Assembly (NCBI GenBank): GCA_044892525.1
Contig: CM097885.1
Span: 121,892,001 to 121,956,000, forward strand
Length of the DNA stretch: 64,000 nucleotides
From: Schmidtea polychroa
Taxonomy: Eukaryota
Direction: 5' to 3'
Shown one piece after another: positions 12,346-63,998 of the stretch. The stretch's first letter is position 1, and every line of letters begins with the position of its first letter. A program made the translations under genes and the position numbers. Below the pieces are notes generated by a model that was not told where the DNA came from, did no database searches, and saw only the letters and a program-made list of their open reading frames with translations.

Positions 12346-12369
12346 ATGGAGATTGGTATTGGATATATT

Positions 12370-17690: not shown

Positions 17691-18634
17691 ATATGTTCAT
17701 TGCCAGTAAATGAATTGTTGTGCAACCAGTTGAGCGTGAGAGAGTTTTTTAAATGTAATTTCACTCAGTATTTATACTGATTGAATTATACGCCTACGCA
17801 TTCTCTGCTGTTATATCCAATTAGAATGCGAGGCAATTCTGATTAATTTTTGCATGCATGCATGAATGTGTGCAATTATTATTTTTTAATTTAATTAATT
17901 TAATTAATCAAAATTCTAATTTTTATTAACTTTTAAGATTTATTTTTATACATTCTATAATTTAAATAGTTTTTTGCTAATTTTAATTTAGTTTTACAAG
18001 TTTTATAATTTAAAATAAGTTCAGTTAATTTTACTTTAGTTTCATTAATTTAAACAATTTGGTTTTATAAGTTTTATAATTTAAATAATTTTGTTGGTTT
18101 TATTTTTAGTTTTCATTAACCAATTTAGTTTTATAAATTTTATGGTTTATCTAATTTTACTACTTTTATTCTACTTTTTATTATTTTACCAGTTTACTAG
18201 ATAATATATTTTTTATCACGTCAAATGTGTTAATTTCGTACAATTTAAAAAGGACAAATATTATTTCAATATGAGAACAAATAAAAAACGGTAGTGGATA
18301 AAATTTGTGTTTAATAAAAATATTGACTTTTAGACTGAAATTAATATTATGGGAATTAATAATTATTTTAGTTTATTCAGCATAAATCCCAAACTTTTTA
18401 AAATTTTAATATACTTATCAATTTATTATTTTAATATTAGCTAAGGAAATTTTCTGTGTCTTATTTTAATATAATTTTAATTAAGTTTTTAATTACAATC
18501 CTATGTTGTTTTAATATATTGTACTTAAATAATTATTTAAGATGGTTTATACCTTTTAGTAATTTTATTCTTTTTGTACATTAATTTAAAATTTAAATGC
18601 TACTTTTTTAATGTTTTATACAATATTTTAGAAT

Positions 18635-20176
18635 ATGACAGAAAATAATAGTCAAGCTGTAGTCACACCTAAAAGAAGTCGTAACACGTATCCAAAGCTT
18701 CCAAATGATTCAATAAATGATACAAGCAGAGATAAAAGATTTTCTGAGCGGTTATCATTGTCTAATCTTGAAAATAAAAAATCCAGAATTTCTTATGCAG
18801 ATGAGGATTATTTCATTGACAGTTCGCCAAGTACTAATATCGTTACATCTACTCCTGTTAGTCGAAATCGGCATTCTACTGGTAAGGGTATGAAACGATA
18901 TAATATTAGCAATGAGACTGGTGATTTTATGTTAGATGCTACGTCTTTAATTCAAGATCTTAATAAAGATATATCAAGAAAAATTGATATTTTGGAAAAT
19001 ATTAATCAGTTTGTAAATTTTCAAAATTCATGTATATGCGTGGACCACTTAGATCCTGATAGTTTATCGCCATTGGAAAGGTGTATTAGAGATTATCCAA
19101 AACTTTATGAAACAAATGTAATGTATACCAAATTCATTAATAAAATACTCATTTCATCAACAAAATTATCTGAAATTTATTTATGCCAACATCGTTTTAA
19201 TTCTCAGTACTACGTCGTTAAATCGGGATATAAATCTAATAGTTATTGCTTGTCAGAATCCAGTAAGGAAATAATAAATGAAGTTAAAATTCTCACATTG
19301 ATTGGTAAACATTTACATGTAGTTGACTTTTATGATGCATGGATTGAAGATGAGAGGTTTCATCTGCAGCTAGGTTTTATTAACGGTGGCTCACTCATTG
19401 ATTTTATAGTTGGGAACTCTAATAGGTTTAATGCAATTTGCGATATTTCTAAGCTGGAAAAAAGATTTAGAATGTCTAGTTGTTCGGCATATATTATGCT
19501 TGCTCATATATCATCAGTGTTAGTCTACATGCATGAAGTTTTAAATATTTTTCATGGAGATATAAAACCTTCAAATATTCTTGTTGATATGGTAAGGTAT
19601 ACGTCTAATGATATAACAATGGCTAAAATAGAGTGCCATAGTGCTTTACTAGAACCAAGTCCAAATCCAAGATTGAGATTCAAATTATGTGATTTTGGTA
19701 GATCTGGTGCAACTAGTAATGTTATAAAAATGGATGAAGGTGATGGGCGATATCTGCCTACTCTCAATGATAATAGTTCTAATTATCATCTGTTTGCTTC
19801 GTCGCGTGATATTTATGCGCTTGGTTTAACTATCTTTGATTGCGTAATTAATTACTTTTCATAATATGATTAATATATTTTCTAGTTTGGAGGAACTATT
19901 AATCAAGAATCGGCTAGCGCAATTCGTAAAGGTAATTGGGGGAAATGGCCAAGCACTATATCAGAAGATTGGCAATATATAATTAAAGTAAAATAATAAT
20001 AACAATAGTTAATAATTATATATTTGCATCAGAAAATGTCGCATAAAAACGAAGTGATGAGGTATACAGCTCGTGAAATCCTAGAATTGGACAACGTTAA
20101 ATGCTTCATTCAACCAGAAGCGCTGTCATATTTTAAGTTTGATGAAATAACATCGGATATAATGGAAATAAATTAG
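18635..20176 (+). CDS. WEE1: Divergent Wee1-family protein kinase, 3 exons, about 484 aa
   Basis: Exons 18635-19843, 19886-19987 and 20033-20176 (GT-AG, phase 0). Motifs VVK, NEV, HVVDFYDAWIED, GGSL, HGDIKPSNIL, KLCDFG, DEGDGRYL and DIYALGLT match the Wee1/Myt1 pattern. Orthology is not proven. Confidence 0.75.
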
Positions 20177-26801: not shown

Positions 26802-27563
26802 TCAGAACGCATCTCCATCGGCGAATACTTCGTCTATATCTACGGGCAATCTGTGATCCACCAGATACTTAATGCCCTCGGCTGGAACCACTTTGAATAT
26901 CTCCTTGGCCGGAATTACGTGGGTGGCTGAAATATCCTTAATTGTGGACTGGGCCATGGATAGAGAAGCTTCTAGCGCCGCCATGGCGTTCCTGCGTTTC
27001 TGGTTTTTCTCCGAGCGTGTTAATCTGTTGCGTTTTCGACGTGGCTTGATAATATCTACTGGACCCTGTGACATAGGTTGAGGTACTAGAATCGGAGCCA
27101 AGATAGGGTCCGATGAGCCTCCTGCCATGGGTCTATAGTCCGAGAGAATTGGAGCGGGAATTGGTGGCAGATGCGGCCCATGCCCCTTACAACCAGTTGT
27201 GGTTGACTGTGCCGATTGGTGGTGGATCGGGAACACATTAGTCCCGTCTTGCACTGGATACTCGCGAACTCGTTTCGCTATTTCTGATTCCGAGTAAACT
27301 TTATGGAGTGCCTCTGATTGGGCTTTTATGGTTAGCCTCTGGCACCGACTTTCTTCTAGGAGACTGTCTCGGCAGTGCTGCAGACGCAATATCTTGCTCT
27401 TTTCCTCTTTCATTTGTGGCGGGGAGAACCACGTGCCTTCATAATGATCGATTCTTTTCTTTAGTGCCCCGATGTAGAGGTGAAGCTGCGCGATGTCAGC
27501 ATTTTTGTCCGCGCAGGAAAAGCAAGGACGAAGAATTTTCTCGGTATTGATTGGGGTAGTCAT
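26802..27563 (-). CDS. Orphan 253-aa protein (CxxC, predicted coiled coil, Pro-rich linker, basic NLS-like tract) inside LTR-like element B
   Basis: Intact ORF with its ATG directly after TTTAG. The core is conserved with copy A through mostly synonymous changes. ATTAAA lies downstream at 26712-26707. Confidence 0.75.
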   Translation of the reverse strand: MTTPINTEKILRPCFSCADKNADIAQLHLYIGALKKRIDHYEGTWFSPPQMKEEKSKILRLQHCRDSLLEESRCQRLTIKAQSEALHKVYSESEIAKRVREYPVQDGTNVFPIHHQSAQSTTTGCKGHGPHLPPIPAPILSDYRPMAGGSSDPILAPILVPQPMSQGPVDIIKPRRKRNRLTRSEKNQKRRNAMAALEASLSMAQSTIKDISATHVIPAKEIFKVVPAEGIKYLVDHRLPVDIDEVFADGDAF

Positions 27564-32900: not shown

Positions 32901-33180
32901 GGGAGAAAAACTCGTATGATTTACAACATAAAAAATTGTATTTCATATTGTCAATAAAATAATTTGGGGTTCATTAGCAAAAATTCGATACTGTAAAGCT
33001 ATTGGTGAAATTTTCATTTCACCCCCCCCCCCCTTTCCTTTCCTTTGAAAAAAACAGTCAATACTTTTATAATGTCTTCAGAACTGAATAAAATTGACCT
33101 ATGCTTACATCCATCCCAACGCAGTCATGCATGGTTAAACCAGCCAATCAGGTAATCCCATATAAAAAAATATGACTTAC

Positions 33181-33902
33181 CATCATAATGGCTATGGGCC
33201 ATAGCTAGTTTCTTATGTTGTCCTTTAGATTTCCGATTACGCATTATTAGAATAATTACCATTATAATAAATATGAGCATTAGAATGGCTGAAATAATAA
33301 TAATTGCAAACAGTGGCATTGGTATATCACCAATACGCCCAGTGCATCTATAATCATTCTCATCAGAGTTATCGTAGCAATTGTCAACGTTGTCACATAC
33401 TAGAGATTCATCAATGCATTTGTAATTACTATTCCAACAACGATATTTAACATCAGGGCAGCTATATGATTGACCAATTACATACGATGACAATGTTATA
33501 AAATAGGCATCATCTGGAGCCGATTCAGTGCCGGGATCATATGTTAACATTATTCGATCTCCAGGTGTCAGAGATTGTACGATGTTACCAACTTTGCTAG
33601 CATAGTTAGTGCAATCGGCTCCAAAAATTAATTTTGGATTTTCTGGTACAACCCATCTTAACTGAATTTCATTGAACATTTGTAATTCATATCTAGTTGT
33701 TTTATAAACTTCGAGTTTAATTGAAGGGCAAACATTGTTAATTTGCATTAAATTTAATTTATTTATTAAAATAGAAAAATAGTATCGATTGTCTATTGGT
33801 CCATAGAAACAAACTTTTTTCCCTTTTTCTTTTGATGATGAAATGCGAACGCCAAGCATGCTTAAAGGATTATCTGGAATACTAAAACAATCGGATGTTG
33901 AT
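33181..33902 (-). CDS. Internal exon of a single-pass membrane protein with an LDL-receptor class A repeat
   Basis: Acceptor TTTTTAG at 33903 and donor GTAAGT at 33180. LDLa motif CPDVKYRCWNSNYKCIDESLVCDNVDNCYDNSDE, then a hydrophobic helix (LFAIIIISAILMLIFIIMVIILIM) and a basic stop-transfer segment. Other exons were not located. Confidence 0.8.
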
Positions 33903-34399
33903 ACTAAAAATTGAAAAAAATTATATGTAATATTATAAAAATGTTACCTATGTCCGTAAGAGCATTTACAGAAAATGTATAATATAAAATTAAACATGAA
34001 ACTATATAGATTTTCATAGTTAATTTTATCGGATTGCTTTAAAAAGTAAATAAGAAGGCAAAATTTAGGAGAAAATATTTTATTAATGGTTAAACAAAAT
34101 GTGTATATAAGAAAAATTTAAAATAATAATAAGAAAAAAATTTAACACCAATTTCTATTTAGGAAATTATTTCAAATAAGAATAAATATAAATTTTAATA
34201 ATTTAAGCATTCAAACAATAAACTCTTCTAAATGAATATATAATTTTTTTTTGCTAAATTACAGTTAACATATAACAGTAAAATCATTAATTTTATTGAT
34301 CACCGTTGGGTTCATTATATTTTATTTAATATTTTCTTTATCTTCATCTTGATAATAGATATTTAATATCTTGTTCAATCAAAAATTTACACTTTCACC

Positions 34400-45500: not shown

Positions 45501-48500
45501 TAAATAGAAAATATTTGGTGCAATTGTATGATGGCAATGATTTTAATGCATATTTTATCTAGAAGTTCTTTATCTCCGAAAACAAAATTAAAAACTGTCT
45601 TTATTTTCTAATTGGCTTATAAAGTGTTATGATTTTTCTACAATTTTAGCTTGATTTAACAAACGATGGAAGAGTTTTAGGAACACCAGATTATTTACCT
45701 CCAGAAATTTTGATAAATTCTAAATACAGACTTCAAGGTCCTCCCGTAGATTGGTGGGCTCTTGGAGTTATCATTTTTGAAATGCTAACTGGTACTACAC
45801 CATTCTCAGGAGAAACAGTTGAACAGATATTTAGCAACATTACAAAAATTAGTTAGTCTATGTTTTCAAAATCTATTAAAATTTAATATTTATTTATAAA
45901 ATATATTTAAATAAACTAATAAATAACAATGGTAGCAACATTTTTTTAAATATATTTTTGCAATATATCCTAACAGTTCAGGTCTCATCACCAGACACTA
46001 AATCAGTGCCGCGTGAAATGGTTTTGGGGGTACGCCTCAAAAATGACGACTTATGAAAATTTTACAATTTAAACCTTTCCCTTAATGTGCTAAAAAGTCC
46101 CGGTCTACTAAGTGCTGCCGTTCATTCATCCTCGATGGCAAACAAGTAAATAAGTAAAAATATATGTTTGGCTGAAACGGGGCGCTAGAAAATACTCGAA
46201 ACTGTCATTTCAGGTCATTTGAGTTGTATTATGAAATATTGCGTTAGTAGTTAACCAAAACGTAGAATGAACTCCCAGACAGATTTCATTGAATGAATAA
46301 AGTTGCATTTGCTCTTTTTAGTGTTTTCGGTTACTGTGAGCAAACATTCTCTATTATGAAAAATAAATTCGTATTGCAATTGTATAACTGAAGGAAGTTG
46401 GGAAATGGGTATATAATGAACCAAATATTGAAGTGTTAGTTTAGAAAAATTTGAAACTCAAGAGAGTCCTTAAAGTTTAATATTGTAATTTTTTATGATG
46501 TTTTTATGTAGTGTTTATATTATAGTCAAATAAAATTTAGCTTAATATAGATTTTTAGTTTTATTTCAGTAACACGCGAAATGGTCAGAACTTTTAATTA
46601 TCAGTGAATTTGTGTTGCAACTTTTTCACTAAACTATTCACTAAAATTAAACAACTTGACAAGGTCGTTCTTAATTAACAAATACAATTTAAAAAGGAAA
46701 ATCACAAACAAAAACAAATTTCGCAAAATAAAGTCGAAAAATAAAAATGGAAATAACCAAATAAAATTGTATATTTCGACTGCTGTTCGAGATAATAGAA
46801 GAATTACAGATGACCCAAAGGAATGTGATGGAAGCAGAAATCCAAAATATAATAATTATCTGTAAGTACTAGATTGCAAAGTATAAAAGTGAAACACCTT
46901 AGATTATAATATAACGAAAAAGGAAAACGGACACGAGAAAACAGAATTAAAATGAAACTATACTGGGAAGACAAATCTAATTACGAAATTAATGGAAAAA
47001 CATTGTCAGATCGGAGAAGCAATTTAAAACAAATTAATAAAGTTATTTATCGCAAGTATAGGGTGATTTCAAGTCGAAGAAACTAGATCGATTTTGTCAA
47101 TTATTCAAATCAGAAGCAGTTTTGAGTGGTCTTGAATTTCAAGTTTTATTGAAGTAGGGTATAGTGAGCTTTCTAGCACACATCCCCCTGTATAGATCAT
47201 ATTATATAATGGGCTAATGCCATATAAGGTCAAATTTAAAGGCAATTTCGATTTAAGGGTCGGGTGGGTTTGTTAAGGGTTCAAATGGGTAGTATAAGCA
47301 TAGAGTTTGCAAATAAACCGCCTTTTTACAAACCGCAGTTTCCGGTTTTCAATTTTCCCAAACCGGCGGTTTAGGTTCGGTTTTCGGTTTTCAGTTTATA
47401 AATTTTTATTGCATAATTTGATCANNNNNNNNNNNNNNNNNNNNNNNNNNNNNNNNNNNNNNNNNNNNNNNNNNNNNNNNNNNNNNNNNNNNNNNNNNNN
47501 NNNNNNNNNNNNNNNNNNNNNNNNNNNNNNNNNNNNNNNNNNNNNNNNNNNNNNNNNNNNNNNNNNNGGTACGGGGCGGTACGCTCGTACCGGTTGTTAA
47601 CATTTTTAAAATTTTCCGTACCGGTTGCTGTATATTAAAAAAAAAGTATGTTTTTAAGTAAAAGTATGTAAAAGTAAAAGTATTGATAAAAACATTCTAA
47701 ATTACTAAAAAAAATAAATATTTACCTGCCATTATCGATCAAATACAAAAAATCTTACAATAAAATAAAAATTTGGGATTTAAAATTTTTTTCGGTTTTA
47801 GTAAAAAAAATCTACTTAAAACTGTCTAATTTGAATTTTAGTACTTTTAATTTCCACTACAATCCAAGAGATGGCATTGAATTATAGAACAAAATTTATG
47901 GAATTGAAAAATTCCTACTGAGCATGTGTAAAGTTGCATTTTAATAGGTGGTTTCACCGCGTAACCACTAAGCTTGAAAGGGTTAACGGAAAATTCTGTA
48001 AAAAAAAATATTTTTCTTTTAATAAAAAGGGAATTTCTCTTTTTGAATACATTTTTATTTTGATATATTTACTCTAAATAAAAAGTTTAGTAGTATAAAT
48101 ATTTTTTATGGTGAATGGTTATCCCTTACTTTTAATCTCTATTAAATTCAGTTTTAACGTGCAAGTATGAAGATTTTAAATTGATTTAAATTTCTAATTA
48201 ATTATTAATTAATTATTAAATATTTTCTTTGTTTCAACCTAAGAATGAAAAGGCAAGGTAATTTGGATGACTTTTTTAGCAAATCTATAAAAATAACCAA
48301 AAACCCTGAACAGCAAGCTGAGAATATTACTAATTCTAATCAAACAAAACAGGTAAAAGAAAAAAATGATACTTCTGAAGTTCAACACCAATCGGAAAAA
48401 GCTGGAACGTCTCGTGATGCTGCGTTATTACATTTTTGGAATGATAAACAACTAAATTATTTTAAAACTAAATACGAGTGGCTTATTGTTGTTAGCGATG

Positions 48501-51500
48501 AAAATGTGGGATGTCAGTGGTGTTCGAAAGTAGAATCGTTAAATTTAGAAACTGCTAAACATTTACACATTTCTGTGGAGTGGAAATCATGCTCTGTCAA
48601 AGCTCATGGCTCGAACAAAGAAAATTTACAATCATCAATGAGAAAAAAATTGAAGGAACACAATGAATCAGCTTCACATAAAAAAGCTGGGGAAATAATA
48701 AAAATTGGTGAAACAAATATAATTTCCAAATCTTTCGATGTGGCTAATGAAAAGTATTTAAACAGCACAGTAAACATTTTTAATACTATCTATTTCATAA
48801 TTAAAAACAATTACCCATTCAGTGATTTTAAAAAATTAATTGATTTACAGAAAAAAAATAATGTAGATTTTGGATTTTCATTACATTCCAGATTTATAGT
48901 TCCACTTGTCGCAAAGCTTATATCTACAGAAATAAGAAGAATTAGTTTTGGAAAACTGATAAATACAGGTTGTAAAATTTCAATTATTATTGATGAAGCC
49001 TCAACTGTTTCACACAAAAGCGTTTTAGTAGTTTATTTGAAATCTGAAATTCAAGATTCCGATGATAGTGTAACAGTTTTTATTGATCTTGTCGAATTAG
49101 ATGGAACAACATCAGAAATAATTTTTAAAACCTTAATATCAGTTCTTGAAAAACATGGTTTTAATGAAAAATATTTACATGAAAATCTTATTGGATTTTG
49201 CTCAGACGGTGCTAGTGTAATGTTAGGAAAAAAGGCTGGAGTTTCTGCAAGAATTTTAGAACATTTTCCAGGTATTAGCATCTGTCACTGTTTAGCTCAT
49301 CGTATTCAGTTAACTCTAGATGATGTTATCAAAGAAGTAAATGAAGTAAATAACTTTAGATATTTTCTCGATAAACTTTATTCGTATTATCATACTTCAA
49401 ATAAACATCAACGAGAATTAAATAATGTTTCTAAAGAACTTGGCACTGAAGTACACAAAATAGGTAGAATATTTGGTCCTCGATGGGCAGCCTGTAGCGC
49501 TAGGACCGCCAAAGCAGTTTGGAAATCATATCAGGCCTTATATATTCACTTTAGTCAAAATAAAGAAATTGGAATAATGTCATATTTCAAAAATGAAAAC
49601 TTTTTAAAAGATTTAGGTTTAATAAACGACATATTAGAAGAAATTTCTGTACTGTCTACAGCTTTACAAGAAAGAGATATTTCATTAATTAGAGCTGATA
49701 GATTGATAAGGCGAACGATTAATCTATTCCAACATTTAAAATTAAATAAAGGAACATATGAAAAAGAAGCAGATGATATTATTAAAACGAAAAAATACAA
49801 TATTCCATTTGAAATTAATAGAAAAAAAACATCAATTGTTGTTTCGAGAGATAAATTTTTTGATTGTTTAGAAAAACATATGAAAACGCGTTTGCTATTA
49901 GACGATAAAAATGAAAACTATAATAATCTCTTAAATTGCTTTAATTTATTAAATCCAGAAACATGGCCAGGTGATATTTTTGAAGCACCATGGATTGAAG
50001 GTGAAAATAGGTTAGAGCAGTTAAATAAAATAATCAAATACATCATTCCAGTAAATGATTTTCGAGATTTTGTTGATGTGCGAGATAGAGAATCTAAAAA
50101 TATTAATACTATTTTGAGAGCAAAAAGAATTTTAAATGTAATTGCTGTTAATTCCGCAGAAGCTGAAAGAGGACTCAGCACAATGAACAATATCATTTAT
50201 GATAAGAGAAATTCGTTGTTAATTGAAACAACAAGTCATTTAATGACAATAAATTTAATGGGAAAATCGATTGAGGATTTTGATGCAACACCATATGTTA
50301 AATTATGGTTGCGAGAAGGGCATCATATGGCAAGTGACAAACGTGTCAAAGCAGCCGCACCTAATTTGCCGTCCCAAAACCAAAATTTAATTTGGAAATT
50401 ATTTAATTAATTTTATATACTATTTTTTATACTATTATATATAATATATGTATTTCTTATGTAAATATGTAAATAAATAACTATTATGAAGTAAATATAA
50501 TCTACAATAGATTTTTTTCCATGCGTACCGGTTGTTAAAAAATTCGAATATCACCACTGTATATATATATATATATATAAATTATATAAAAATTTAAATT
50601 ATAAGACAGTTAGACATAGAATATTAAAATTAAACAAAACAAAAACATTACAAAATTCAAAAGGAATAAAAAATTAAAGTAAAAAAATTCATACGTTTAG
50701 AAATTATTTATTCTAAAATATTTTAAAAAAATTAGAGAATTCAATGAGTTTCCGGCTGAAATTAGCTGAAACTAAAAATACTCTTTCAGATTCGGTGGAT
50801 GTTGGGCGTATCGTTAAAATTGCGTCATACAATTGTTGAAGAATTATAGTTCTCTTGCCGGTTTTCTTATAAATTGAAATTTCATCTCTTAGAGAACTAA
50901 ATTGTTTTTCTACTCCCTCTTTGGCAGCCTTATTTATTGCAGCATTGATTTCATCTTGCCGAGAAGCAATATCGCCATCAATGCTCACATCATCTAAGCT
51001 TTCTCCATAATTTTCATCTGCTGATGTCGCTATATTATCTACTTAGAAAACTTGAACCAAAATTTAAAATTTCTTTTGTTGGTACTTTTTGTTGAAGAAG
51101 GCAGGATAACAAAGGATAACAATATAACAATATTCTCACGTGAACACAATCTTGCTTTGATATTATCTTTAAGTTCATCAATTTTGGAAAAACTTGTTAC
51201 TTCAATGTCATCTAACTTCTTCAATAAGAAATTAATTGCACCTTTGGCAGTTATTAAATTCGCATTCTTTCTACCCAACGCAAGAACAGTCAGTAATAAT
51301 GGTTCCATAATGGCGCACAACTGTTTAAGCACTTCAAAATCGATTCCTCGAATTAAATTACAAGCATTTAATTCTTTTAATACTTCTTCGATGGGTTTAC
51401 TACATTTTAAAAATGTCTCTAACGTAGGATGAATTGAATTCCATCTATGTTTCACATTAAGTTTTAGATGTAGTTCATGACCAAGTTCGATACAAATTTT

Positions 51501-53278
51501 TTGTTGCAAAATGTCATTACGAACTGTTGAGTTTTTGAAAAATTTCACAATAGCACGAACTTTATTTAATATCTCGGCTAGATTGATTTCTTCGGAAACT
51601 TCGGATTCGGTATCATCATTGTCAAACAAAGAATAACCTTCGTCATCTTTATCAAATTCATCATCTTCATTATTATCGCTGTCGTCTTCAGCTTCATTAT
51701 CGAAATTATCGCTATGATTTTTTGATTTTTTGCAATAAAATGTATTAGAAACAGCAAGGTGAAGACCATGATTTAAACATAATTGGACTTCAGCTGGATA
51801 TTCTCTACCGTATTTAACCATAACACTAGCCCCATCGTTGGTGGTAGCTACAATGTCTCTTTCGAAGGACAGATGGAAAATTTTAAGATGGTCAGCCACG
51901 GTCAGGTGAATCTTTGCCGAGTTGCATGATCCAATAATTCTTACCAATCCTAGGTTCAATACTTTACCTGTCTTATCATGTACATTTATGTTCATATAAC
52001 GGCGTTGTCGAGAACTTACCCATTCGTTCAAAGTGATACTAAATTTCTCACCTTTTTTTTGGCCTCATCAAAAAAACTTACATGAAGTTTTTTCTTTTTT
52101 TCATATTCGGCGTGAATAAGTGCCATTGTTCCACTTTCACTTTTAGGTAATTTATAGCCCTTTTCAGAAATTGCATGTCGAATAAAATTTGACCTTGTAA
52201 TGAATCTAATTGAAAAGCCGTCTTTTGTAGCCAACTCGTCAACAATTTCTCCAAGAATTGCTTTTTTCATAAAATCAACTATTGACGTTTTTTGTTGTAA
52301 TTTTGAGTTCCCATTTCCACTTGTTGAAGCAACGTTTGTAAGGGAATCATCGTGCGATCTTTTACAAGAAATCTTATGAATATTTCGCATGTGATTGATC
52401 ATTGCATACGTAGAACCCTTAGAATTGTTCACTTCTGTTCCGCATTTTTTACATTTAGCTTTATTGTTAGCATTGTTTGCAGCTGAAATTTTCGTAAAAT
52501 ATTCCCACACTGCCGACGACATTATTTGGGCATATATTTGAATTTTAAAAAAATACTTAAAAAAAATTATTAATTTTTGTTAAAAAAATTTAGTGGAAAA
52601 AATACTTACTTATAATAAGCATAAGAATTTAAGGCTAAGTTAGATTTAAAAAGGGATATGGTGGATCAGGATGAGCTAAGTTTATTTTGAGTCATTTTAT
52701 GATGGAAATAGTGGGCTTTGTGTGTTAATTTAAGGGTCGCAATAAATACTTAATAGTTACTATAAGAACTTTTATTTCTTCCAATTTCACCACTGATTAT
52801 TTTTTCCATTAAATTTATTAAAAAAAGAGTTACTGTTGCAATATTAAATCAATTTGTGTCATTGTAAATTGTAATAAATTGCACTAATCTATAAAAGTTT
52901 ATTGTCCGTGAATCGTTATTGTTGACAACCATAACATGCTTTGGGAAAAATTCACATTTCACAGACAACTCCAAAAATATTATATCTTATATGTAATCGT
53001 ATCAATTTATTAAATTACAATATATTTATTTAGATATTGACTGGCCTGATTTTGAACTTGATTCATCAGCAGTTGAAGCAATAAATGGGTTATTATTATA
53101 CGACTCATGCAAAAGATGGGGGTTTGCCCAGCTAGACAATAGTGATTACATAGATTATATGCGCAATTCCAATAATCCTCCATTTGTACCTAATGTTACT
53201 GGGAAGGAAGATACAGGATATCATGACTTTAGAAATAGGATATTTGATTACAGTGCAACTCACCATGTCATGGACTAA
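36598..53278 (+). CDS. MASTL: Greatwall/MASTL serine/threonine kinase
   Basis: Exons 36598-36600 (ATG only), 36762-36817, 36859-36959, 37004-37095, 39293-39432, 39477-39568, 40698-40810, 40853-41056, 41101-41292, 45650-45851, 53034-53278, all phase-compatible. Motifs [86 protein letters not shown] and PFVP...EDTGY. The insert between DFG and GTPDY is typical of Greatwall. Confidence 0.9.
37590..38369 (-). mobile_element. Degenerate hAT-like remnant in a MASTL intron
   Basis: GGGGTTCCCAAAC-type terminus near 37585 and broken coding-like frames running into the N-gap. Confidence 0.35.
39620..40440 (-). mobile_element. Degenerate DNA transposase remnant (hATm-like)
   Basis: Broken frame [21 protein letters not shown]...DRILQAR matches the AHPENILL transposase motif; the family label is tentative. 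Confidence 0.55.
42252..42493. mobile_element. piggyBac-type MITE
   Basis: TTAA on both sides; TIRs CCTCTTAAGTG and CACTGAAGAGG (10/11 complementary). Confidence 0.8.
42560..43135 (-). mobile_element. Degenerate Chapaev3-like (CMC) transposase N-terminus
   Basis: [15 protein letters not shown] and [10 protein letters not shown] match the CxNxPDxFCYICG and DHxxDCYFC motifs; multiple stops. Confidence 0.7.
47301..47400. mobile_element. hAT-type terminus with AAACCG subterminal repeats
   Basis: TAGAGTTTGCAAATAAACCG followed by clustered AAACCG/CGGTTT motifs, ending near the N-gap. Confidence 0.55.
47568..50559 (+). mobile_element. Apparently intact autonomous hAT element in the last MASTL intron (left TIR presumably in the N-gap)
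   Basis: Right terminus ATATCACCACTG; GTACCGGTTG subterminal repeats at 47587, 47618 and 50525; full-length transposase ORF. Confidence 0.8.
48245..50410 (+). CDS. hAT transposase (ZNF862/KIAA1586-like), 721 aa
   Basis: IIIDEAS (D), CSDGASVM (D), CLAH (CxxH), PRW and SAEAERGLS (E); N-terminal CxxC...H...H; uninterrupted. Confidence 0.92.
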   Translation: MKRQGNLDDFFSKSIKITKNPEQQAENITNSNQTKQVKEKNDTSEVQHQSEKAGTSRDAALLHFWNDKQLNYFKTKYEWLIVVSDENVGCQWCSKVESLNLETAKHLHISVEWKSCSVKAHGSNKENLQSSMRKKLKEHNESASHKKAGEIIKIGETNIISKSFDVANEKYLNSTVNIFNTIYFIIKNNYPFSDFKKLIDLQKKNNVDFGFSLHSRFIVPLVAKLISTEIRRISFGKLINTGCKISIIIDEASTVSHKSVLVVYLKSEIQDSDDSVTVFIDLVELDGTTSEIIFKTLISVLEKHGFNEKYLHENLIGFCSDGASVMLGKKAGVSARILEHFPGISICHCLAHRIQLTLDDVIKEVNEVNNFRYFLDKLYSYYHTSNKHQRELNNVSKELGTEVHKIGRIFGPRWAACSARTAKAVWKSYQALYIHFSQNKEIGIMSYFKNENFLKDLGLINDILEEISVLSTALQERDISLIRADRLIRRTINLFQHLKLNKGTYEKEADDIIKTKKYNIPFEINRKKTSIVVSRDKFFDCLEKHMKTRLLLDDKNENYNNLLNCFNLLNPETWPGDIFEAPWIEGENRLEQLNKIIKYIIPVNDFRDFVDVRDRESKNINTILRAKRILNVIAVNSAEAERGLSTMNNIIYDKRNSLLIETTSHLMTINLMGKSIEDFDATPYVKLWLREGHHMASDKRVKAAAPNLPSQNQNLIWKLFN
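50713..52522 (-). pseudogene. BED-finger hAT transposase, frameshifted
   Basis: BED finger (VWEYF...CKKC...NHMRNIH), ITLNEW (first catalytic D appears as N), NDGASVM, CLNH, HRWNS and TSTESERVF, split over three frames. Confidence 0.88.
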
Positions 53279-53999: not shown

Positions 54000-55425
54000 T
54001 GTTCAGGTCAGAACCACGTCGCCTTCATTCTTCAGCAGTGTCGGACGAGTGATTCTGCTCTTTCCGTGTAGTGGGCAACGTCATGCAGGAACTTCTCTAA
54101 GATGTATACTGTAATAAAAGAATCGATAAAGAAAATTAAAAACTAAGAAAACTAAAACAAACATGCACAACTTTCCAAAACACCAATCATTAACCTTAAA
54201 AGAAAATAATGGAATTTGGCACGACGTATCAAACGAAAACAATAAAAGAGTTATTGTTGGGTTTTATAATAACAAAAGATTGATCGTTGGTTACTCTGAC
54301 TCCTCGTGTTCAGACAAATCAATAAACTCCGATTTCCCAACGTATATTTGTTATTACACTTTACAATTCTCAATCACAACAAATTTCACACAATAATTTA
54401 ATAATCAAACTTTTTATCTATTCGATCAAGCCCCACCTCGGAAGTCTCGACCCTGTGCGATCTTGAAAGTAACTATCACCTTTTAATTCCTTTATTCGAC
54501 TCCTTGTCTTTGATTTGATTTGTTTGACTGTTTTGAATTTAATTCACTCAACTCTTTGATTCACTTTTGATACCCTTTAATTTCCTTGATCTGACTTCTT
54601 TGATTCCTTAATTTTCCACGTCTCTTCAATTTCACCCCTTCTAACAATCTCCAAAACCTATTGTCGATTTCTTCTTCCCTACCTAAGGCTAACGCCAAAT
54701 TTTCTGAATTTGGAGTCTCCTTATATACTCCAATAATCATTTTGATTACCAGCGGCTTTCTTTGATATTATGATAAAATAACTGTAATTAATCATTTCTA
54801 CCGTTCCTTCATGTTATTTCCGATCTTTTTTTATTTACCCTCACTTATCCTGTTGATTCCATAATAGTTCTCTAAAAGTTAAACTGTTTATTTTTCTCGA
54901 TTGCCGCGCTCGGTTGTTAAGATAATGTCTCTCCAAAAGTCGTTTTGTTTGTTTTGATAATCGTTCTCCAACGTTCAGTTTGTTTATTTTCCCTAATAAC
55001 CGTGCTCGAGGTTTCTTCATCTCTCGGGTTCTCCATTGGCTCGGACTTCCCATTAGCCCGGGTTTTCCATTAGCCAATTAATTAATTAATTAATGATTTC
55101 TGTTTTAACCTTTTTACCTATTTTCAACCCTTTCAAGACATTTTCTGACAATTTCTTGCTCGCTATCTTCTTCGCCAATCCCTGATCTACACCTATTCCG
55201 TTTTCCAGTTTCGATTTTGATAACTTTTCAATTTATTCCAATTTCTCCGATTTGCACTTTTTCTCCATTCCGTATCTGCTTACACCTTTTTCTCGTTCTG
55301 TTTTCCTTATGTCTTTCTTCAATTCTCTGCTTGATCGCGATTCTCTTTCGTTCCCCTTCAATGTTCTTTTGAATCAAATTAATTCTAATTTAATTTAAGA
55401 TAATTTTAATTTGACAACCTCAACA
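54000..55425 (-). mobile_element. 3' LTR (1426 bp) of the Gypsy element
   Basis: Imperfect 9-bp inverted termini TGTTCAGGT and ACCTCAACA; adjacent polypurine tract; TATATAA at 54727-54721. Confidence 0.85.
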
Positions 55426-55440
55426 TATCTCCCCCCTTAA
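55426..55440 (-). promoter_or_regulatory. Polypurine tract
   Basis: Minus strand TTAAGGGGGGAGATA lies immediately before TGTTGAGG. Confidence 0.85.
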
Positions 55441-57009: not shown

Positions 57010-57255
57010 TTAGTCCAAGTTATGCATTTCTCCCTCCTCCATAGTTTCGTCTTCCTGCTCCTGTAGTTTCATTCGCCATAGAACTACCTCGGCTTCATAT
57101 CTGAAAAGAAGAATTTCCATTTTTTCAAATCGTCTTTTGACCACCCAATTCTCTTGTTCCAGATCGAAAATTCTTTTCTCCATTGCCTTCATTTTTTTTT
57201 CATCTCTTTCATGGTGTTAAGACATTCTTTTAGTGATTCCTCTTCCTGCATTTCC
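57010..57255 (-). CDS. Possible small coiled-coil accessory ORF in the Gypsy 3' region (one homopolymer frameshift)
   Basis: After an acceptor (TTTAG) the frame EMQEEESLKECLNTMKEM joins MKAMEKRIFDLEQENW... across an A9 run that is one base short. Confidence 0.35.
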
Positions 57256-57441: not shown

Positions 57442-58560
57442 TCATTGTCGATGAACATAGTTAGGTGTCCTTTTGCATATTACGATTGTTATTATTAGAA
57501 ACACTATGGATAATATGAAAAATGCTGTTATCATAAGATAGAGTAAGTATTCACAGATGATTAATGTTTGGTTCGTTTCATTTAAAACTAGCTTGCTCAT
57601 TTGAGTTCGATTAAATTTATTTCGATTCAGTGGTGGACCCGTGGTTGCTACTATCGTCTGCGTTTGATGTGTGGCTGTTAGGATCAACTCTGGCCTTTTG
57701 ATCAGTTTTGTTTCTACCAAAACTGTTTGCCAACGATATGGTTTGTCCATCCACAGCTGGTATTTGATTTTTATCAGGTAATTATCTCCTAAATTAGACG
57801 TATTAAATAAAAAGTAACTTTTACCCACATCCAACAAAACGATAATTCTTTGATTTTCACTAATAATTACTCTTTCATTGATCATTGATTTTCTATATAT
57901 TGCTATCGCTTCATACTGCACTTTGAAAATCACTATATTCGATACATTTCTTAGGTAAATATTCTGCTTTTCGGTTTTAAACAATGCCCATCTATTGTTC
58001 ATTATTGTCCCGTTATCGTATAGCATATTTTCATAATAATTTGTTAATATGGTATAATTGGCATTCATTTTTAGGTTATAATATCGAGAATACGATTTCC
58101 GTGTATTTAATGTATCAACAAAGTTTTGAAATATCACTTGTGCTTTCACCCGTTCACTTGCTGTCCAATACACATTTACTCCATTTAATACCGGCTCTAT
58201 TTCGACTGTATGTCGTAATTCTTTCGTTTGTATTATGACTCGAATTTGACTAAACTTTACCGACGAATTTGTCTCATTTTGTTTTATAAACCACGGATAC
58301 CTGAAGTTCGCCTTTAATTCTTATGCCACATACATATTTCTATCGTAATTAAGAATACTGACCGGCGTGAATGGATCTAAGAGGTTGTCAATTTCTATCT
58401 GTTCCGATATCTCACAATGATAGATCCAGACAATATTCGTATACGTAGAGTATATATTGATCTTTTCCCATAAGGGTATTTTTGTCACTGCATAAGGTAA
58501 ATCGACCTTCCCACCCTTAACACTTGTCACTGTTAACAGAGCAATCATTATAAACAACAT
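57442..58560 (-). CDS. Second envelope-like type I membrane glycoprotein (about 372 codons, one internal TAA), in frame with integrase
   Basis: Signal-like MLFIMIALLTVTSVKG at 58560. The frame stays open on both sides of the single TAA at 58323-58321. At least seven N-x-S/T sequons and a C-terminal hydrophobic helix, LLYLMITAFFILSIVFLIITIVIC. Confidence 0.7.
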
Positions 58561-61500
58561 TTTTGTAATGTAACTGATTGGGACTGGGTTTTTGGTAAAT
58601 TTTTGTTGAACTATGGCATCCACTTTTTCTTTGTTTTGTTTTGATCGAAGTGGATATCTTGTTTCATCGTCTTCTGGCATTAATTTGCATCGATTTGCAT
58701 GAACTATTATAGGATTAGCTTTTTTACTCCTGAATGGTAGTAGTTTCAAATTTGTTTCAGTTGTGTCACATACTTTATATGGCCCTTTAAACGGTCTCTG
58801 TAATTTTGGTGACATTCCTTTGAGCGGTTCAGGTCTATTGAGATATACCAAGTCTCCAATTTTGATTCCATGTGGATGTGCCTTTTTATCATAGGCTTCT
58901 TTATACTTTTCTTGATTGTGTTTTACCGTTAACCCAGCTTTTGCCCACACGGACTGCACTCTTTCTTGCATTAATGCTTTATAGTCTGGTATTTCCATAT
59001 ATTGTGTTACCGGCAATTGGAAGTTTAAATCTATCGGCATATTATTTCTTCTTAGATACATCAAATAAAAAGGTGTCTCACCCGTGCTTGGGTTTATTGC
59101 ATTTCGGTAAGCAAACAAGCAAGGCTTTATATATTCATCCCAATCCCTTTGCTTACTATTAACATACGACGAAATCATATTTATCAATGTACCGTTAAAT
59201 CTCTCAACTAAGCCATCGGTTTGTGGATGATAAGGAGAAGTATTCAGCTTCCAGATTCCAAATAACTCAGTAATTGATTTAAATAATTCGCTTTGAAAGT
59301 TTGAGCCCTGATCAGTTAGTAATTTCTTAGGAGTGCCATATCTAAAGACAATATTCTCTACGAATATTTTGGCTACCGTATCGGCCTTTTGATTGGGTAT
59401 GGCGTAAGCTTCCGGCCATCTCGTCAAATAATCACAGAATACTACAATACATTTATTTCCTTTTATTGTTTCAGGTAATGGTCCCACAATGTCCATTGCA
59501 GTCATCTCCATTGGTGCAGTTGGTACAGGCATTGGTTTTAAAGGTACTTTAATTTTATTTCCTGTATTTCTCCTTGTAATACATATTTTACATTTCTTGC
59601 ACCAATCTCTCACATCTTGCTCCATTAATGGCCAATAATATTTTAGTTTTAGTCTCGATAAAGTTTTTCTAGCAGATAAGTGCCCTCCTAAAGCTCCGTC
59701 GTGATATTGCATCAATAATGAATCTCTCTGTTTTTCAGGAATCATGATTAGTATCTCATCGTTTTTTACACATTTTAATATTCCTTCGTGAATTATATAT
59801 TTGTGATTTTCATTGATTATTTTCTTTAAATTGCTCTTTTTTTCGACTGTAATTGCTCGTTCAAAAAACTGTTTAAGTTGATTGTCATTTTTCTGTTCAT
59901 TTTGTAACTCTATCATATTGTTAACGGCTTTAATTGCGGCAAATATCGTGCCTTCAATCGTTTCTGTACTACCTTCACTTTCAATGCCTCCATTGGGAAT
60001 TCTAGACATTGTATCGGCATTTGCATTAGCTTTCCCTGCTCTGTATTTAATTTCGAAATCATACTCTTGAAGAGCTATTGACCACCTAATTAATTTACTA
60101 GCTGAATCTCTATGCTTCATCAACCATTGAAGAGGATTGTGATCAGTGTATACGATAAATTTCCGTCCCAACAAGTATTGTCTAAACGTAGCGATTCCGT
60201 AAACTAACGCTAAGGTTTCTTTTTCAATTGTTGAATAATTTTTTTCATGTGGTCTCAGTGACCTGCTTGCATACGCTATCACGTGATCTTTTTCCCCATC
60301 TACCTTCTGACCCAACACTGCGCCTAATGCAACGTTACTGGCATCCGTCATTAATAAGAACAATTTTGTAAAATCTGGGCATTTCAAAATAGGTGTCGTT
60401 ATTAATTTTTGCTTCAGTGCGTCAAATGCTTCTTGTTGAGTTTTGTTCCATATGAACTTGTTATTCTTCTTCAATAATGAATTTAACGGTTGAGCTATAA
60501 GCGAGAAATTCTTTATAAACTTTCTATAATAGCTTGCTAATCCTAAGAATTGCCTCACATCATCCGCATTCTTTGGAATTGGATACACTTCCACTTTTTT
60601 AATGTTGTCAGGATTTGTTTGTAGACCTCGTCTTGATATTATATGACCAACATACACCACTTCGGATTTTCCCCATTCACACTTCGATGGTTTTATTTTC
60701 AATTTTGCTTCTTTTAGTCGTTTAAATACTGCCTCAACATCATCGAGATGTTCATCAAAGCTATTTGAAAATATAATAATATCATCAATGTAAACTAACG
60801 CGTGTTTTAAGCCTCTTAATACAAAATTCATATCTCTTTGAAATGTAGCCGGGGCTCCCGTCAAACCGAACGGTAGAACATTGAACTCATATAACCCTTT
60901 GCCATCTGAAAAGGCTGTCTTCTTTCTATCCTCTTCCTTGACTTTAAATTGATTATACCCTTTATTCAAATCAATCACAGTAAAATATTGAGCTTCTCCC
61001 ATCTGATCGAACATTTCCTGGGGTACAGGAATTGGATATGTATCTTTTCTTGTTACCTGGTTCAGTTTTCTGTAATCCACACAAAATCGTAAATCTCCGT
61101 CTTTTTTCTTTACAATTACAATGGACGACGAAAACGGTGATGAGCTATCTCTGATTATTCCAAAATCTTTCATTGCCTGAATTTGTCGATCACTTTCGGT
61201 TTGATGAATATATGGTATTCTGTACGGTTTTATTTTCACCGGGGTTTCATCCAACAACGGAATTTCATGTTCAATTATATTTGTTAACCCCAAGTCATAT
61301 TCGTGTCTCGCAAAAATATCCCGGTATCTCCTCAACAATTCTGTAAACTTTTGCCTTTGCTCTTCGGTCAGATCAGTACTTACTACTTCAGGTTCTTTAT
61401 AAATTTTTACGTTTTTAGGAATCTTCCTTTCCGCTTCTATCAACATATTAGACAATTTGCCTAGTTTCGTCTTTGGTTTTAGCCGAATTGGCTTGTCACC

Positions 61501-62955
61501 ATAGTTAGCTATTCGCACTGGTAATAATTGATTTTCCACTTTCACAATTTCGTCACACATCGGGGTCTCGTATTTTTCTATTAACGTTTGATTCGGTTCA
61601 AATATAAATTCGTCATTGTCTACGCCAGCAGCGTTCGCATAATATATTATTTCTGTTTGAGGTGGGATGGTTAACGATTGACTGAGAAATACTTCTCCTA
61701 AATCATGAATGACTTCGCCACTTTTTCCCACGATCAAATTTCCAGTTTTAAAATCCAGTGAGATTCCGTCTAACTGCTCCAGTACATCCATTCCAATCAA
61801 ACACAAAACAGGGCTTTTTTCCATAATCTGTACGTTATGTGTAATCTTTCTGTCACCAATTAGAAGTACCACTTCTATTTCTCCAATTATTCTCAATACG
61901 TTTTTAGACAGTGATCTGATTATGCTATTTGATGGTTTTATTTGCCTTCTCTCCTTTGTCGACAATATCTCCTCTGATATAATTGTATGACTTGATCCTG
62001 AATCCACAACAGCCTCCACTCTCTTTTTATTTAGTTGGATTAATATTCGTGGTTGTTTGCCAATTTTTGCTAACGTCATCAATACATAATTTCCGGGTAA
62101 ACCTAACCTGTTTCGTCTTTCGATTTCGGCACTTGTTGGTTCGATTCTCTCACATTGTAAAGCAATATTTTCGACTGGTTTCATTTCCCTCAATTTTTCG
62201 ACTGGATACGCTGGTAGTGGTTGGATAAACGATTTTGGTATACACAATCTAGAAAAAGTATCCTGATTATCATTATTGGACAGTGATTCTTTTAGCAGTT
62301 GATAGTTTTTCAATGTGTTACTTTGCATTCGTTCCTCCGAATACAACGGGGCGGATTCATTGATATTTTCGTCATCATTTTTGTCATCGTTAGAAGTAGT
62401 AGTCAAATCGATATAACTTACCTTTTTCTTTTTCATCAGTCGTGTTTTCAAAGTTTCCATCTCTTTATACTGGTGATGTGTGATAAAAAATCTGGCTAGC
62501 AATGGAACGCATTCCATGACTAATTTCCAAGACAATCCCGTAATAGTATACAATCTGTGTGTTGACAACATCTGCGAGATTATTACTTTAATCACGATTC
62601 CAATTACGCAGATTCCGATTAATCCAGCACAAGCTTGACCAATAAACATGAACTTTCCCCATATCTTTTTCATCGTATTATATGTTGCTCTTTTGTAATG
62701 ATCAGGTGTTAACAAGTAGTCGTAATTTGCTTTCCCAGTTCCACTCGGGAGAATAGTGTCCACCATTTCCATAATCACCCTTTCTTTTTTTGATGGAAAC
62801 AATAAATTTCTCCGGGCCGCTTCAATATCATCACTTGAATACATCCCACTTTGCGTCATACTATCTAGCGATGTAAAATTAATCAAATACTCTAATTTGG
62901 TCAACTCCAATTTCTCTGGAACTTTCACTCCCTGTGATCGGGTAGTGCAATCCAT
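58321..62955 (-). CDS. Ty3/Gypsy polyprotein: glycoprotein C-terminus/TM, protease, RT, RNase H, integrase
   Basis: VDSGS (about 62000), YRKLN, PFGL, YIDD (60792-60781), TDAS and TDHNPL, HHCC finger, MDIVGP / TDQG / VERFN (DDE) and GPY. The order PR-RT-RH-IN is Gypsy-type. Confidence 0.95.
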   Translation of the reverse strand: MDCTTRSQGVKVPEKLELTKLEYLINFTSLDSMTQSGMYSSDDIEAARRNLLFPSKKERVIMEMVDTILPSGTGKANYDYLLTPDHYKRATYNTMKKIWGKFMFIGQACAGLIGICVIGIVIKVIISQMLSTHRLYTITGLSWKLVMECVPLLARFFITHHQYKEMETLKTRLMKKKKVSYIDLTTTSNDDKNDDENINESAPLYSEERMQSNTLKNYQLLKESLSNNDNQDTFSRLCIPKSFIQPLPAYPVEKLREMKPVENIALQCERIEPTSAEIERRNRLGLPGNYVLMTLAKIGKQPRILIQLNKKRVEAVVDSGSSHTIISEEILSTKERRQIKPSNSIIRSLSKNVLRIIGEIEVVLLIGDRKITHNVQIMEKSPVLCLIGMDVLEQLDGISLDFKTGNLIVGKSGEVIHDLGEVFLSQSLTIPPQTEIIYYANAAGVDNDEFIFEPNQTLIEKYETPMCDEIVKVENQLLPVRIANYGDKPIRLKPKTKLGKLSNMLIEAERKIPKNVKIYKEPEVVSTDLTEEQRQKFTELLRRYRDIFARHEYDLGLTNIIEHEIPLLDETPVKIKPYRIPYIHQTESDRQIQAMKDFGIIRDSSSPFSSSIVIVKKKDGDLRFCVDYRKLNQVTRKDTYPIPVPQEMFDQMGEAQYFTVIDLNKGYNQFKVKEEDRKKTAFSDGKGLYEFNVLPFGLTGAPATFQRDMNFVLRGLKHALVYIDDIIIFSNSFDEHLDDVEAVFKRLKEAKLKIKPSKCEWGKSEVVYVGHIISRRGLQTNPDNIKKVEVYPIPKNADDVRQFLGLASYYRKFIKNFSLIAQPLNSLLKKNNKFIWNKTQQEAFDALKQKLITTPILKCPDFTKLFLLMTDASNVALGAVLGQKVDGEKDHVIAYASRSLRPHEKNYSTIEKETLALVYGIATFRQYLLGRKFIVYTDHNPLQWLMKHRDSASKLIRWSIALQEYDFEIKYRAGKANANADTMSRIPNGGIESEGSTETIEGTIFAAIKAVNNMIELQNEQKNDNQLKQFFERAITVEKKSNLKKIINENHKYIIHEGILKCVKNDEILIMIPEKQRDSLLMQYHDGALGGHLSARKTLSRLKLKYYWPLMEQDVRDWCKKCKICITRRNTGNKIKVPLKPMPVPTAPMEMTAMDIVGPLPETIKGNKCIVVFCDYLTRWPEAYAIPNQKADTVAKIFVENIVFRYGTPKKLLTDQGSNFQSELFKSITELFGIWKLNTSPYHPQTDGLVERFNGTLINMISSYVNSKQRDWDEYIKPCLFAYRNAINPSTGETPFYLMYLRRNNMPIDLNFQLPVTQYMEIPDYKALMQERVQSVWAKAGLTVKHNQEKYKEAYDKKAHPHGIKIGDLVYLNRPEPLKGMSPKLQRPFKGPYKVCDTTETNLKLLPFRSKKANPIIVHANRCKLMPEDDETRYPLRSKQNKEKVDAIVQQKFTKNPVPISYITKMLFIMIALLTVTSVKGGKVDLPYAVTKIPLWEKINIYSTYTNIVWIYHCEISEQIEIDNLLDPFTPVSILNYDRNMYVA

Positions 62956-63998
62956 GATTCAGACGTCAAGCGATACAGTGGAGCCAATAATCTATTACAT
63001 TGCAATACTTTAGGCTTCACGTCCTCTTCCAGTAGAATGCGTGTCACCGGTTCCATGAATCGCAATTTCCCGTTAAAATTCACTGGCAATTCATTTGTAC
63101 ATTGATCGAATTTCATCAATTTGATAGGTACAGCTTTGCATTTATAGCTATACAACGCTTCGCCAAAAATTCGAGCAGATACTCCGTTCTCTGATATTAG
63201 CATTGGAGCAACTAAATTCGGATTTGTAATAGCCATCGCCATTCTGTTTCGCAAAATTTCCTTATTTAACTTGCAATCATTTAATATAATTTCTCGATAC
63301 ACACTTTCGACCGTATCTTGGCTAAAATGAAACAGATAATCAATTTTGTTATTGAAATAATTCGTTAGTTTAATTTCCTCTGAATATAACTTCGTTTGAG
63401 CTTCCTCGACAATTCTTTTTGATACATAAATTCCTTTATAATTTGTTTCATATACTGTTTGTCCACATTTGGTATTTATACCCTTTCTGAGAAATCTCAT
63501 CCCATCATTCGGGGATATTGCCATTAATACCGTTGGAGTATCTTTCATTCGCAAAGGCGTAATTCTAATCGTTGTATTCATCACTGAATTTAGAATTGTA
63601 CTTTCTGGTCTCTCTTGAATTTGCTCTCCTGTTATCTCTTTGAAAGGCATCGATTTTAAGTGCGCTAAGTTACACTTTTTCACATTCACGTCGTACACCA
63701 AAATTGATTCACCTGTATTACAACTGGTTTCTCTCATATTGCAAAATGGATGTGTTTGCAATTTTCCCGTGTCATCATCGAACGATCCGTCAAAATATTT
63801 CAATTCTGATTCGTACTCTTCTATAACAACGACTTTATCAATAACCTGTTCACCCACCTTGTGCGATTCACCTTCGCAATCACCATTTGCTTTGATCAAC
63901 CCTTTTATTGCAATTGTTTCGCGAATTTTGTGATTCACTTTCGCTTTTAACTTAATTTCCGCATTTATTTTTAATTCTCCTGTTTGAAACGCTGCCAA
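62925..63998 (-). CDS. Chuvirus-like / gB-type (class III) viral glycoprotein ectodomain, open beyond the window edge
   Basis: The Cys pattern and the segment GEALYSYKCKAVPI...CTNELPV...FMEPVTRIL...CNRLLAPLY...W follow the chuviral glycoprotein pattern. It continues, after a 1-nt shift, into SMTQSGMYS...LLFP...KIWGKFMFIG...TM. Recognised by eye only. Confidence 0.75.
   Translation of the reverse strand: MAAFQTGELKINAEIKLKAKVNHKIRETIAIKGLIKANGDCEGESHKVGEQVIDKVVVIEEYESELKYFDGSFDDDTGKLQTHPFCNMRETSCNTGESILVYDVNVKKCNLAHLKSMPFKEITGEQIQERPESTILNSVMNTTIRITPLRMKDTPTVLMAISPNDGMRFLRKGINTKCGQTVYETNYKGIYVSKRIVEEAQTKLYSEEIKLTNYFNNKIDYLFHFSQDTVESVYREIILNDCKLNKEILRNRMAMAITNPNLVAPMLISENGVSARIFGEALYSYKCKAVPIKLMKFDQCTNELPVNFNGKLRFMEPVTRILLEEDVKPKVLQCNRLLAPLYRLTSESWIALPDHRE

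Follow-up and report, generated by a model that had tools for sequence, protein, structure and literature searches.

The planarian retroelement Burro carries Gag, Ubi/SUMO-like, BCL2 and dUTPase-like domains, together with a mononegavirus-like env that sits in frame between gag and pol (Arkhipova and Yushenova 2019, PMC6431247). Ty3/gypsy errantiviruses with a GAG-ENV-POL order and a gB-type env have been described from nematodes, bryozoans and flatworms, including six from Schmidtea mediterranea, and elements of this order are reported not to be monophyletic (Chary and Hayashi, eLife 2026, PMC13524379). Here we analyse a multi-copy element of Schmidtea polychroa, almost certainly a Ty3/gypsy long terminal repeat (LTR) element in both identity and layout, whose 3' two-thirds lie on the minus strand of a 64,000-nucleotide stretch of the genome (the window, G000:C1:121892001-121956000). 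With the nematode non-canonical endogenous retroviruses (Sacco et al. 2022, via PMC13524379) it shares a Metavirus pol preceded by an RNA-virus glycoprotein, and with the mosquito chuvirus-glycoprotein elements (Dezordi et al. 2020) the kind of glycoprotein within an LTR element, although those elements belong to BEL/Pao. As far as the available sections of the accounts go, the placement of a fusogen between gag and pol, which the first-pass annotation of the window had thought possibly undescribed, was already in print, published in frame in 2019 for Burro (PMC6431247) and also for the GAG-ENV-POL errantiviruses (PMC13524379), so that the element opens no new class. It is new only through a predicted fibronectin-III (FN3)-type surface protein encoded after the integrase, a membrane protein that is under purifying selection.

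Burro/GYPSM1 and the element described here have in common a single frame of Gag, ubiquitin-like, BCL2, env and pol modules, whereas Burro exceeds 30 kb and encodes 4,873 aa against 14.5 kb and 3,331 aa here, and its BIR, RING, MATH and ankyrin cargo has no Pfam matches in our element (PMC6431247). Smed_errantivirus_2 and Smed_errantivirus_1, reported as regions of ~14.8 kb, have the same Ty3/gypsy pol, a gB-type env between gag and pol, and multiple copies; over a stretch of glycoprotein domain I/II, 187 of 251 residues (~75%, counted by eye) are identical between Smed_errantivirus_2 and our element, and Smed_errantivirus_3 resembles a sister family found here (PMC13524379). We regard the element as a Burro relative of compact size that is closely akin to the Smed errantiviruses, and do not file it as Burro. 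In the sections available to us, the Burro account names no post-integrase membrane protein (PMC6431247), and the errantivirus account contains neither fibronectin, FN3, PDZ, Burro nor polyprotein in its main text, nor Bcl in its supplements (PMC13524379). The accessible literature on Burro, errantiviruses and related elements likewise yielded no description of such a protein, which figures and deposited open reading frame (ORF) annotations may show.

The complete element measures 14,540 bp and continues for 4,794 bases past the window end (G000:C1:121956001-121960794). Gag, the first signal segment, the primer site and the 5' LTR, which the first-pass annotation had proposed to look for there, were all found within these bases. 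Its features are listed below in coding order, those of an unbroken copy last; positions refer to the window unless stated otherwise, and the hydrophobic segments were placed on the window by a constant offset to the unbroken copy. RT, IN and TM denote reverse transcriptase, integrase and transmembrane segment, and dN/dS the ratio of nonsynonymous to synonymous change.

G000:C1:121956001-121960794, minus strand of the window, beyond its end: 5' LTR, tRNA-Trp primer site, Gag with three CCHC knuckles, two ubiquitin-like stretches, Bcl-2-like domain (frameshifted here), signal 1 and glycoprotein start
62925..63998, minus strand: middle of the glycoprotein ectodomain (Monjiviricetes/gB-type), PF24664 E 5.8e-38, 99% identity to unbroken copies
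62653..62958, minus strand: end of the glycoprotein ectodomain, past the frameshift, PF24664 profile 447-635, E 1e-22
62557..62652, minus strand: glycoprotein membrane anchor TM1, hydropathy 2.5
61768..62058, minus strand: aspartyl protease, DSG motif near 62004, PF00077 E 1.5e-06
61408..61725, minus strand: conserved domain between protease and RT, dN/dS 0.08, positional counterpart of the Burro dUTPase-like domain (PMC6431247, as far as available)
60637..61113, minus strand: RT, YIDD, PF00078 E 1.2e-33
60061..60450, minus strand: RNase H region, PF17917 and PF17919
58700..59742, minus strand: IN with zinc-binding part, core and GPY/F-type motif near 58788 (FKGPY), PF17921 and PF00665
58519..58584, minus strand: second signal-like hydrophobic segment (signal 2), in 7/7 families, hydropathy 1.5-2.1
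57688..58515, minus strand: second ectodomain, three tandem FN3-like beta sandwiches predicted from the AF2 model of the unbroken copy, interrupted by the stop at 58321-58323
57442..57570, minus strand: second membrane anchor TM2, 10-residue tail and stop, without the PDZ-binding-like end of sister families
57010..57198, minus strand: small accessory ORF, shorter here than in another copy (80 aa), kept in related subfamilies, 48 tblastn matches at 40-100% identity among fetched loci
55428..55438, minus strand: polypurine tract
54255..55425, minus strand: 3' LTR, TG...CA, 1171 bp, 99.66% identity to the 5' LTR
54251..54254, minus strand: 4-bp target-site duplication ATAA, the same four letters preceding the 5' LTR
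3,331-aa protein of the unbroken copy, N-terminal part: Gag with three CCHC at aa 1-350; ubiquitin-like ~510-590 and ~675-750; Bcl-2-like 890-1020; signal 1 1032-1059
3,331-aa protein, rest: glycoprotein ectodomain; TM1 1596-1627; protease, RT, RNase H, IN; signal 2 2952-2973; second ectodomain; TM2 3290-3326

The coding region in the window consists of three minus-strand frames: one of 357 aa at 63998-62925, which runs off the window end without closing, one of 1545 aa at 62958-58321, and one of 292 aa at 58320-57442. They lie where the first-pass annotation had drawn one minus-strand path with two breaks, namely a frameshift within the 62925-62958 overlap and the stop at 58321-58323; a third break of this copy is found just past the window end, in the Bcl-2-like region. 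The order that it had read along the path, from ectodomain and TM through protease, RT, RNase H and IN to a second signal and TM, agrees with the Pfam matches and the hydrophobic segments, the final TM falling at about 57570-57460. PF24664 (Monjiviricetes_fusion) matches on both sides of the frameshift at adjoining profile positions (247-444 and 447-635), and in the unbroken copy it matches with E 3.8e-88 between Gag and the protease, bearing out the chuvirus/gB-type glycoprotein claimed for the gag-pol junction. As also claimed, there is no CCHC knuckle between TM1 and the protease, all three being in Gag beyond the window. The conserved domain at 61408..61725 had no Pfam dUTPase match, its dUTPase-like label coming from its Burro position only.

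Assignment to the Gypsy type, another point on which the first-pass annotation was right, is carried by the LTRs, the 4-bp duplication, the primer site, the polypurine tract, the protease-RT-RNase H-IN order and a retrotransposon Gag with CCHC knuckles. Ranked by similarity among solved structures, the RT lies nearest to Ty3 RT (E 3.7e-60), with the next family at 1.2e-35 and foamy virus RT at ~1e-22. An assignment to BEL/Pao was rejected, as Peptidase_A17 and kin, which we take to be the Pao-type Pfam families, were not among the Pfam matches. The two LTRs differ by 3 mismatches and 1 gap; the window copy, although inserted recently, is already broken. Separately, a near-identical copy (L032:1-2333, G000:C4:5500001-5502333) is inserted in a 369-bp tandem array of tRNA genes and flanked by the 4-bp duplication AAAG.

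The primer site, a few letters after the LTR, comprises 18 letters complementary to the last 15 letters of the host tRNA-Trp plus CCA. For the Smed elements, by contrast, the available account lists no tRNA primer (PMC13524379). Genes for tRNA-Trp were found in a 284-bp tandem array from G000:C4:55022433 onward (L277-L281), with 821 pattern matches genome-wide, and this array likely encodes the primer tRNA of the element family.

A search for other copies, also proposed in the first-pass annotation, showed a glycoprotein match at 77-100% identity in 114/114 scored genome candidates, with open frames of 3,290-3,361 codons around 12 of these rows. Such copy counts are lower bounds, and three of the 12 long-frame rows differ by 0-1 letters over 4 kb, possibly being one locus assembled repeatedly. 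One unbroken copy is colinear with the window copy at 99.3% and encodes the 3,331-aa protein in one frame. Six copies of related subfamilies have the same module order, each in one frame of between 3,314-3,396 aa, and it is unchanged in the ~3,030-aa single frame of a sister family whose RT is 52% identical. Matching sequences comprised 52 reads, mostly partial and divergent, in a polyA run labelled as another organism, together with contigs from a run presumed to be RNA, and we drew no conclusion from them.

The modules were inherited jointly. Trees of Gag, the Bcl-2-like domain, the glycoprotein, RT-RNase H, IN and the second ectodomain have one common branching order over seven families (five for the second ectodomain), as built by FastTree from seven sequences with some nodes weak. 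In two pairs, mostly not saturated, dN/dS was below 0.5 in every module with an estimate, that is, under purifying selection: in family A versus A2, and then in the second pair, it was 0.03 and 0.04 for the glycoprotein, 0.26 and 0.20 for the Bcl-2-like domain, and 0.13 and 0.28 for the second ectodomain. The glycoprotein ectodomain keeps values of 0.03-0.04 over its whole length, about as constrained as RT (0.01-0.03), as expected of a working fusogen. For a putative class III fold of the glycoprotein, no solved fusogen appeared in the 60 of 108 matches listed.

The membrane protein that the first-pass annotation had placed after the integrase is real; a signal, an ectodomain and a TM follow IN in 7/7 families. 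The second ectodomains of families A and C have no detectable sequence likeness to those of B. Homologues of this ectodomain were absent from 2,355 and 5,755 candidates (0 in each) and from 16 viral-contig stretches (0/16), and no PDB sequence matched under E 0.4; the last window frame (58320-57442) had no Pfam match, including none to a fusion-protein family. The AF2 model of the ectodomain from the unbroken copy is all-beta and forms three units, with a mean pLDDT of 58.8 and about 80 in the middle unit. When it was compared with 48,161 solved chains by VIA-align, the top match was a CD45 FN3 domain (Z 8.6, rmsd 1.9 over 74 residues), followed by fibronectin, CD148 and Dscam, and most of the 50 structural-match rows were FN3 domains. 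Atlas leads were FN3 and cytokine-receptor clusters at 0.81-0.83 (under 0.9). This predicted fold points to a receptor- or adhesin-like protein and not to a second fusogen, and FN3-type is the likely reading of the post-integrase protein.

Several results weigh against this reading. The first sandwich has pLDDT mostly below 60, and the best Z of 8.6 is close to the range that the tool rates as common (7-8), which makes it middling. Pfam fn3 did not match in any of 11 members, an E of 0.093 being reached in a sister family only. A host FN3 profile scored against shuffles gave 26/300 for this family, 8 and 14/300 for a sister family and 34-210/300 for others, none significant, and the profile-profile probability to host FN3 was 0.8%. 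The excess of N-glycosylation sequons in the second ectodomain is weak as well (p 0.05, 0.052 and 0.002 in 3/5 families, none in 2/5). A complex prediction of the glycoprotein with the second ectodomain, run without alignments, scored 0.00 and gave no answer.

Among the best 150 matches in a public protein library, 12 are at least 1,000 aa long and three extend past the integrase. All three of these distant polyproteins (31-49% identical) have a signal-like segment and an ectodomain after IN, with a likely final TM in two and a PDZ-like end in none. A 2,627-aa polyprotein of the same design (P0007) is deposited at NCBI as a hypothetical protein in a bacterial metagenome bin, likely animal DNA in the bin.

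On the Gag side, the ubiquitin-like stretches and the Bcl-2-like domain were compared with known families. An element-only profile of the latter matched Bcl-2/Bcl-xL at E 1.5e-4, the best 60 of 109 rows all being of the Bcl-2 family, and it matched host Bcl-2-like genes with 95% probability. The domain has the Bcl-2 helical fold and the BH2 W...GGW; its AF2 model (pLDDT 77) retrieved Foldseek rows that, as listed, all belong to the Bcl-2 family, with TM ~0.5-0.6 and a best E of 2.3e-3, no listed row being at E 0.001. Pfam scores fell below the cut-off of 31.4, at 15.9 in this family and 28.6 in a sister family, and no homologue of the region was found among 359 long candidates. Short Bcl-2-like frames of 152-309 codons are also dispersed in many places in the genome, often with one internal TAG (L169-L183).

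Four hydrophobic segments occur in 7/7 families, and their flanking charges suggest an orientation: signal 1 has 4-6 K/R before it and 0-2 after, and TM2 is followed by more K/R than precede it in all seven. A topology with four membrane passes, together with processing of the chain, is probable. Signal 1 would hold the Gag-Ubl-Ubl-Bcl-2-like part in the cytosol, anchored to the membrane, and host signal peptidase would cut after both signals, so that glycoprotein and FN3-like protein end up free in the lumen. Pol would lie in the cytosol, in the stretch from TM1 to signal 2; that it is made as the cytosolic tail of the glycoprotein, as the first-pass annotation had suggested, is likely, one frame with four hydrophobic segments giving alternating sides of the membrane, and the element's own protease may then release Pol and the Gag products. 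On balance we favour a reading in which the element makes one polyprotein whose cleavage yields Gag as a tethered precursor, a fusogen, the enzymes of Pol and a predicted FN3-type surface protein serving attachment. Budding particles would carry the two surface proteins, with the FN3-like protein making cell contact and the gB-type one mediating fusion, for passage between cells, while the Bcl-2-like domain may dampen death of the producing cell. Taken singly, the attachment role is a tentative assignment, somewhat short of probable.

Other observations count against this scheme. Next to TM1, the A families do not follow the charge rule, with 3 K/R preceding the segment and 1 following it, and the ubiquitin-like stretches are weak matches (Pfam E 0.013 and 0.007; PDB E ~0.1). 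NWGR, which we take to be the BH1 signature, is missing in 7/7 families, with NKDV, NRDV, DRDV, DKEV, NKEV or NRDK instead, so that the anti-death activity of the Bcl-2-like domain is only putative. One frame yields Gag, Env and Pol at the same level, a ratio unfavourable to particle assembly, as retroviruses show. A fuller version would meet this point with non-autonomous copies that supply surplus Gag. It would see these flatworm elements as complex agents resembling retroviruses, with a two-part entry machine cut from the four-pass polyprotein, which combines a captured RNA-virus class III fusogen with a captured host-type FN3 attachment protein, and with a Bcl-2-like death blocker on Gag; as a whole we consider it a minority possibility.

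Derivatives of this non-autonomous kind were found at G000:C1:48222775-48226746 (L144) and G000:C3:78980062-78984033 (L141/L142), about 10 kb long with LTRs 99.0-99.6% alike. Their single 1,323-codon frame encodes Gag, Ubl, the Bcl-2-like domain and signal 1, along with a portion of the second ectodomain and with TM2, but neither glycoprotein nor Pol, and five rows of the genome listing share this frame length. In L146 (G000:C52:148573-152874) and L224/L225 (G000:C1:76657977-76663523), Pol is mostly deleted in frame, joining the glycoprotein and protease region to the second membrane protein.

The FN3-like protein could instead act on the host cell surface and not on particles, mimicking a receptor or mediating adhesion, with a PDZ-binding tail to position it, and so aiding cell-to-cell spread, blocking superinfection or altering signalling. 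Six sister families end in S/T-x-V/L, which we take to be the class I PDZ-binding pattern. Among the fetched loci the counts were ETTV/ESTV 17/19, ETRL 3/3, ETWV 26/31, ETFV 1/1 and STLV/SSLV 5/6, against a background of 892/18,630 (4.8%), figures to be read with the overlap of loci and the kinship of the families. The fold matches are themselves host receptors and adhesion proteins, and the non-autonomous copies lacking glycoprotein and Pol retain part of the second ectodomain and the TM in frame in both examined (2/2). The window's subfamily, however, has no such end in 13 loci (0/13) and yet includes a recent insertion and one unbroken copy, and the motif does not stand at the ends of the three distant public relatives. 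We regard a host-surface role as a minority possibility.

A strictly intracellular life, with glycoprotein and FN3-like protein used for membrane tethering or for assembly along the secretory pathway, would fit the statement in the available account that the transmission mechanism of most such elements is elusive (PMC13524379). Constraint on the glycoprotein near the level of RT along its whole length argues against it, and we consider this alternative improbable.

That the downstream protein is another viral envelope (fusion) protein, as implied by the envelope-like label of the first-pass annotation, is very improbable. Its signal, TM and N-glycosylation sequons (8 in 316 aa) are as in an env, but the lack of a match to any fusion-protein family speaks against it, as do the cysteines, one in the body of the ectodomain and another beside the TM, and the model, which lacks the long helices of a class I or III core and whose 50 fold rows from solved chains include no fusogen. 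The membrane protein stands, and its envelope likeness is not supported.

That glycoprotein, Pol and second protein are separate nested insertions or neutral passengers, for which nothing speaks besides the breaks in the window copy, has next to no probability and is excluded by the unbroken single frames in 12/114 rows, the colinear copy at 99.3%, the congruent module trees, dN/dS well below 1 throughout the modules, and the single LTR pair with its one target duplication.

Some neighbouring and associated frames were also noted. Sister families have a separate 3' ORF (L222:2874-4364, L218:1917-4250), of which that in L222 matches ISG20L2/ISG20 exonucleases (E 8.8e-11); a 3' ORF of this length was not seen in the window's subfamily, and LTR elements of rotifers are known to carry DEDDy exonuclease ORFs (PMC5408684, as far as available). 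A 563-codon TPR and J-domain-like frame (G000:C3:78973077-78974768, L141/L143; label by eye) lies in a 2.1-kb direct repeat flanking a non-autonomous copy. Elsewhere in the window, frames labelled by eye include a pair of hAT-type DNA transposase frames, one on each strand (48209-52579; one of 733 codons and open, one broken), host-gene exons for a Wee1/Myt1-like protein kinase (18632-19864, plus strand) and a host-gene exon with an LDL-receptor-A-like repeat followed by a TM (33125-33943, minus strand). A repeated ORF occurs in two related copies (12247-12840 and 26802-27563, minus strand).

Returning to the polyprotein reading with an FN3-type attachment protein, one frame would supply every protein of the retroelement, those in the cytosol as well as those in the lumen. 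If this reading is true, a co-encoded, selected receptor-like protein would be a concrete candidate for the means by which invertebrate retroelements with gB-type fusogens reach the right cell.

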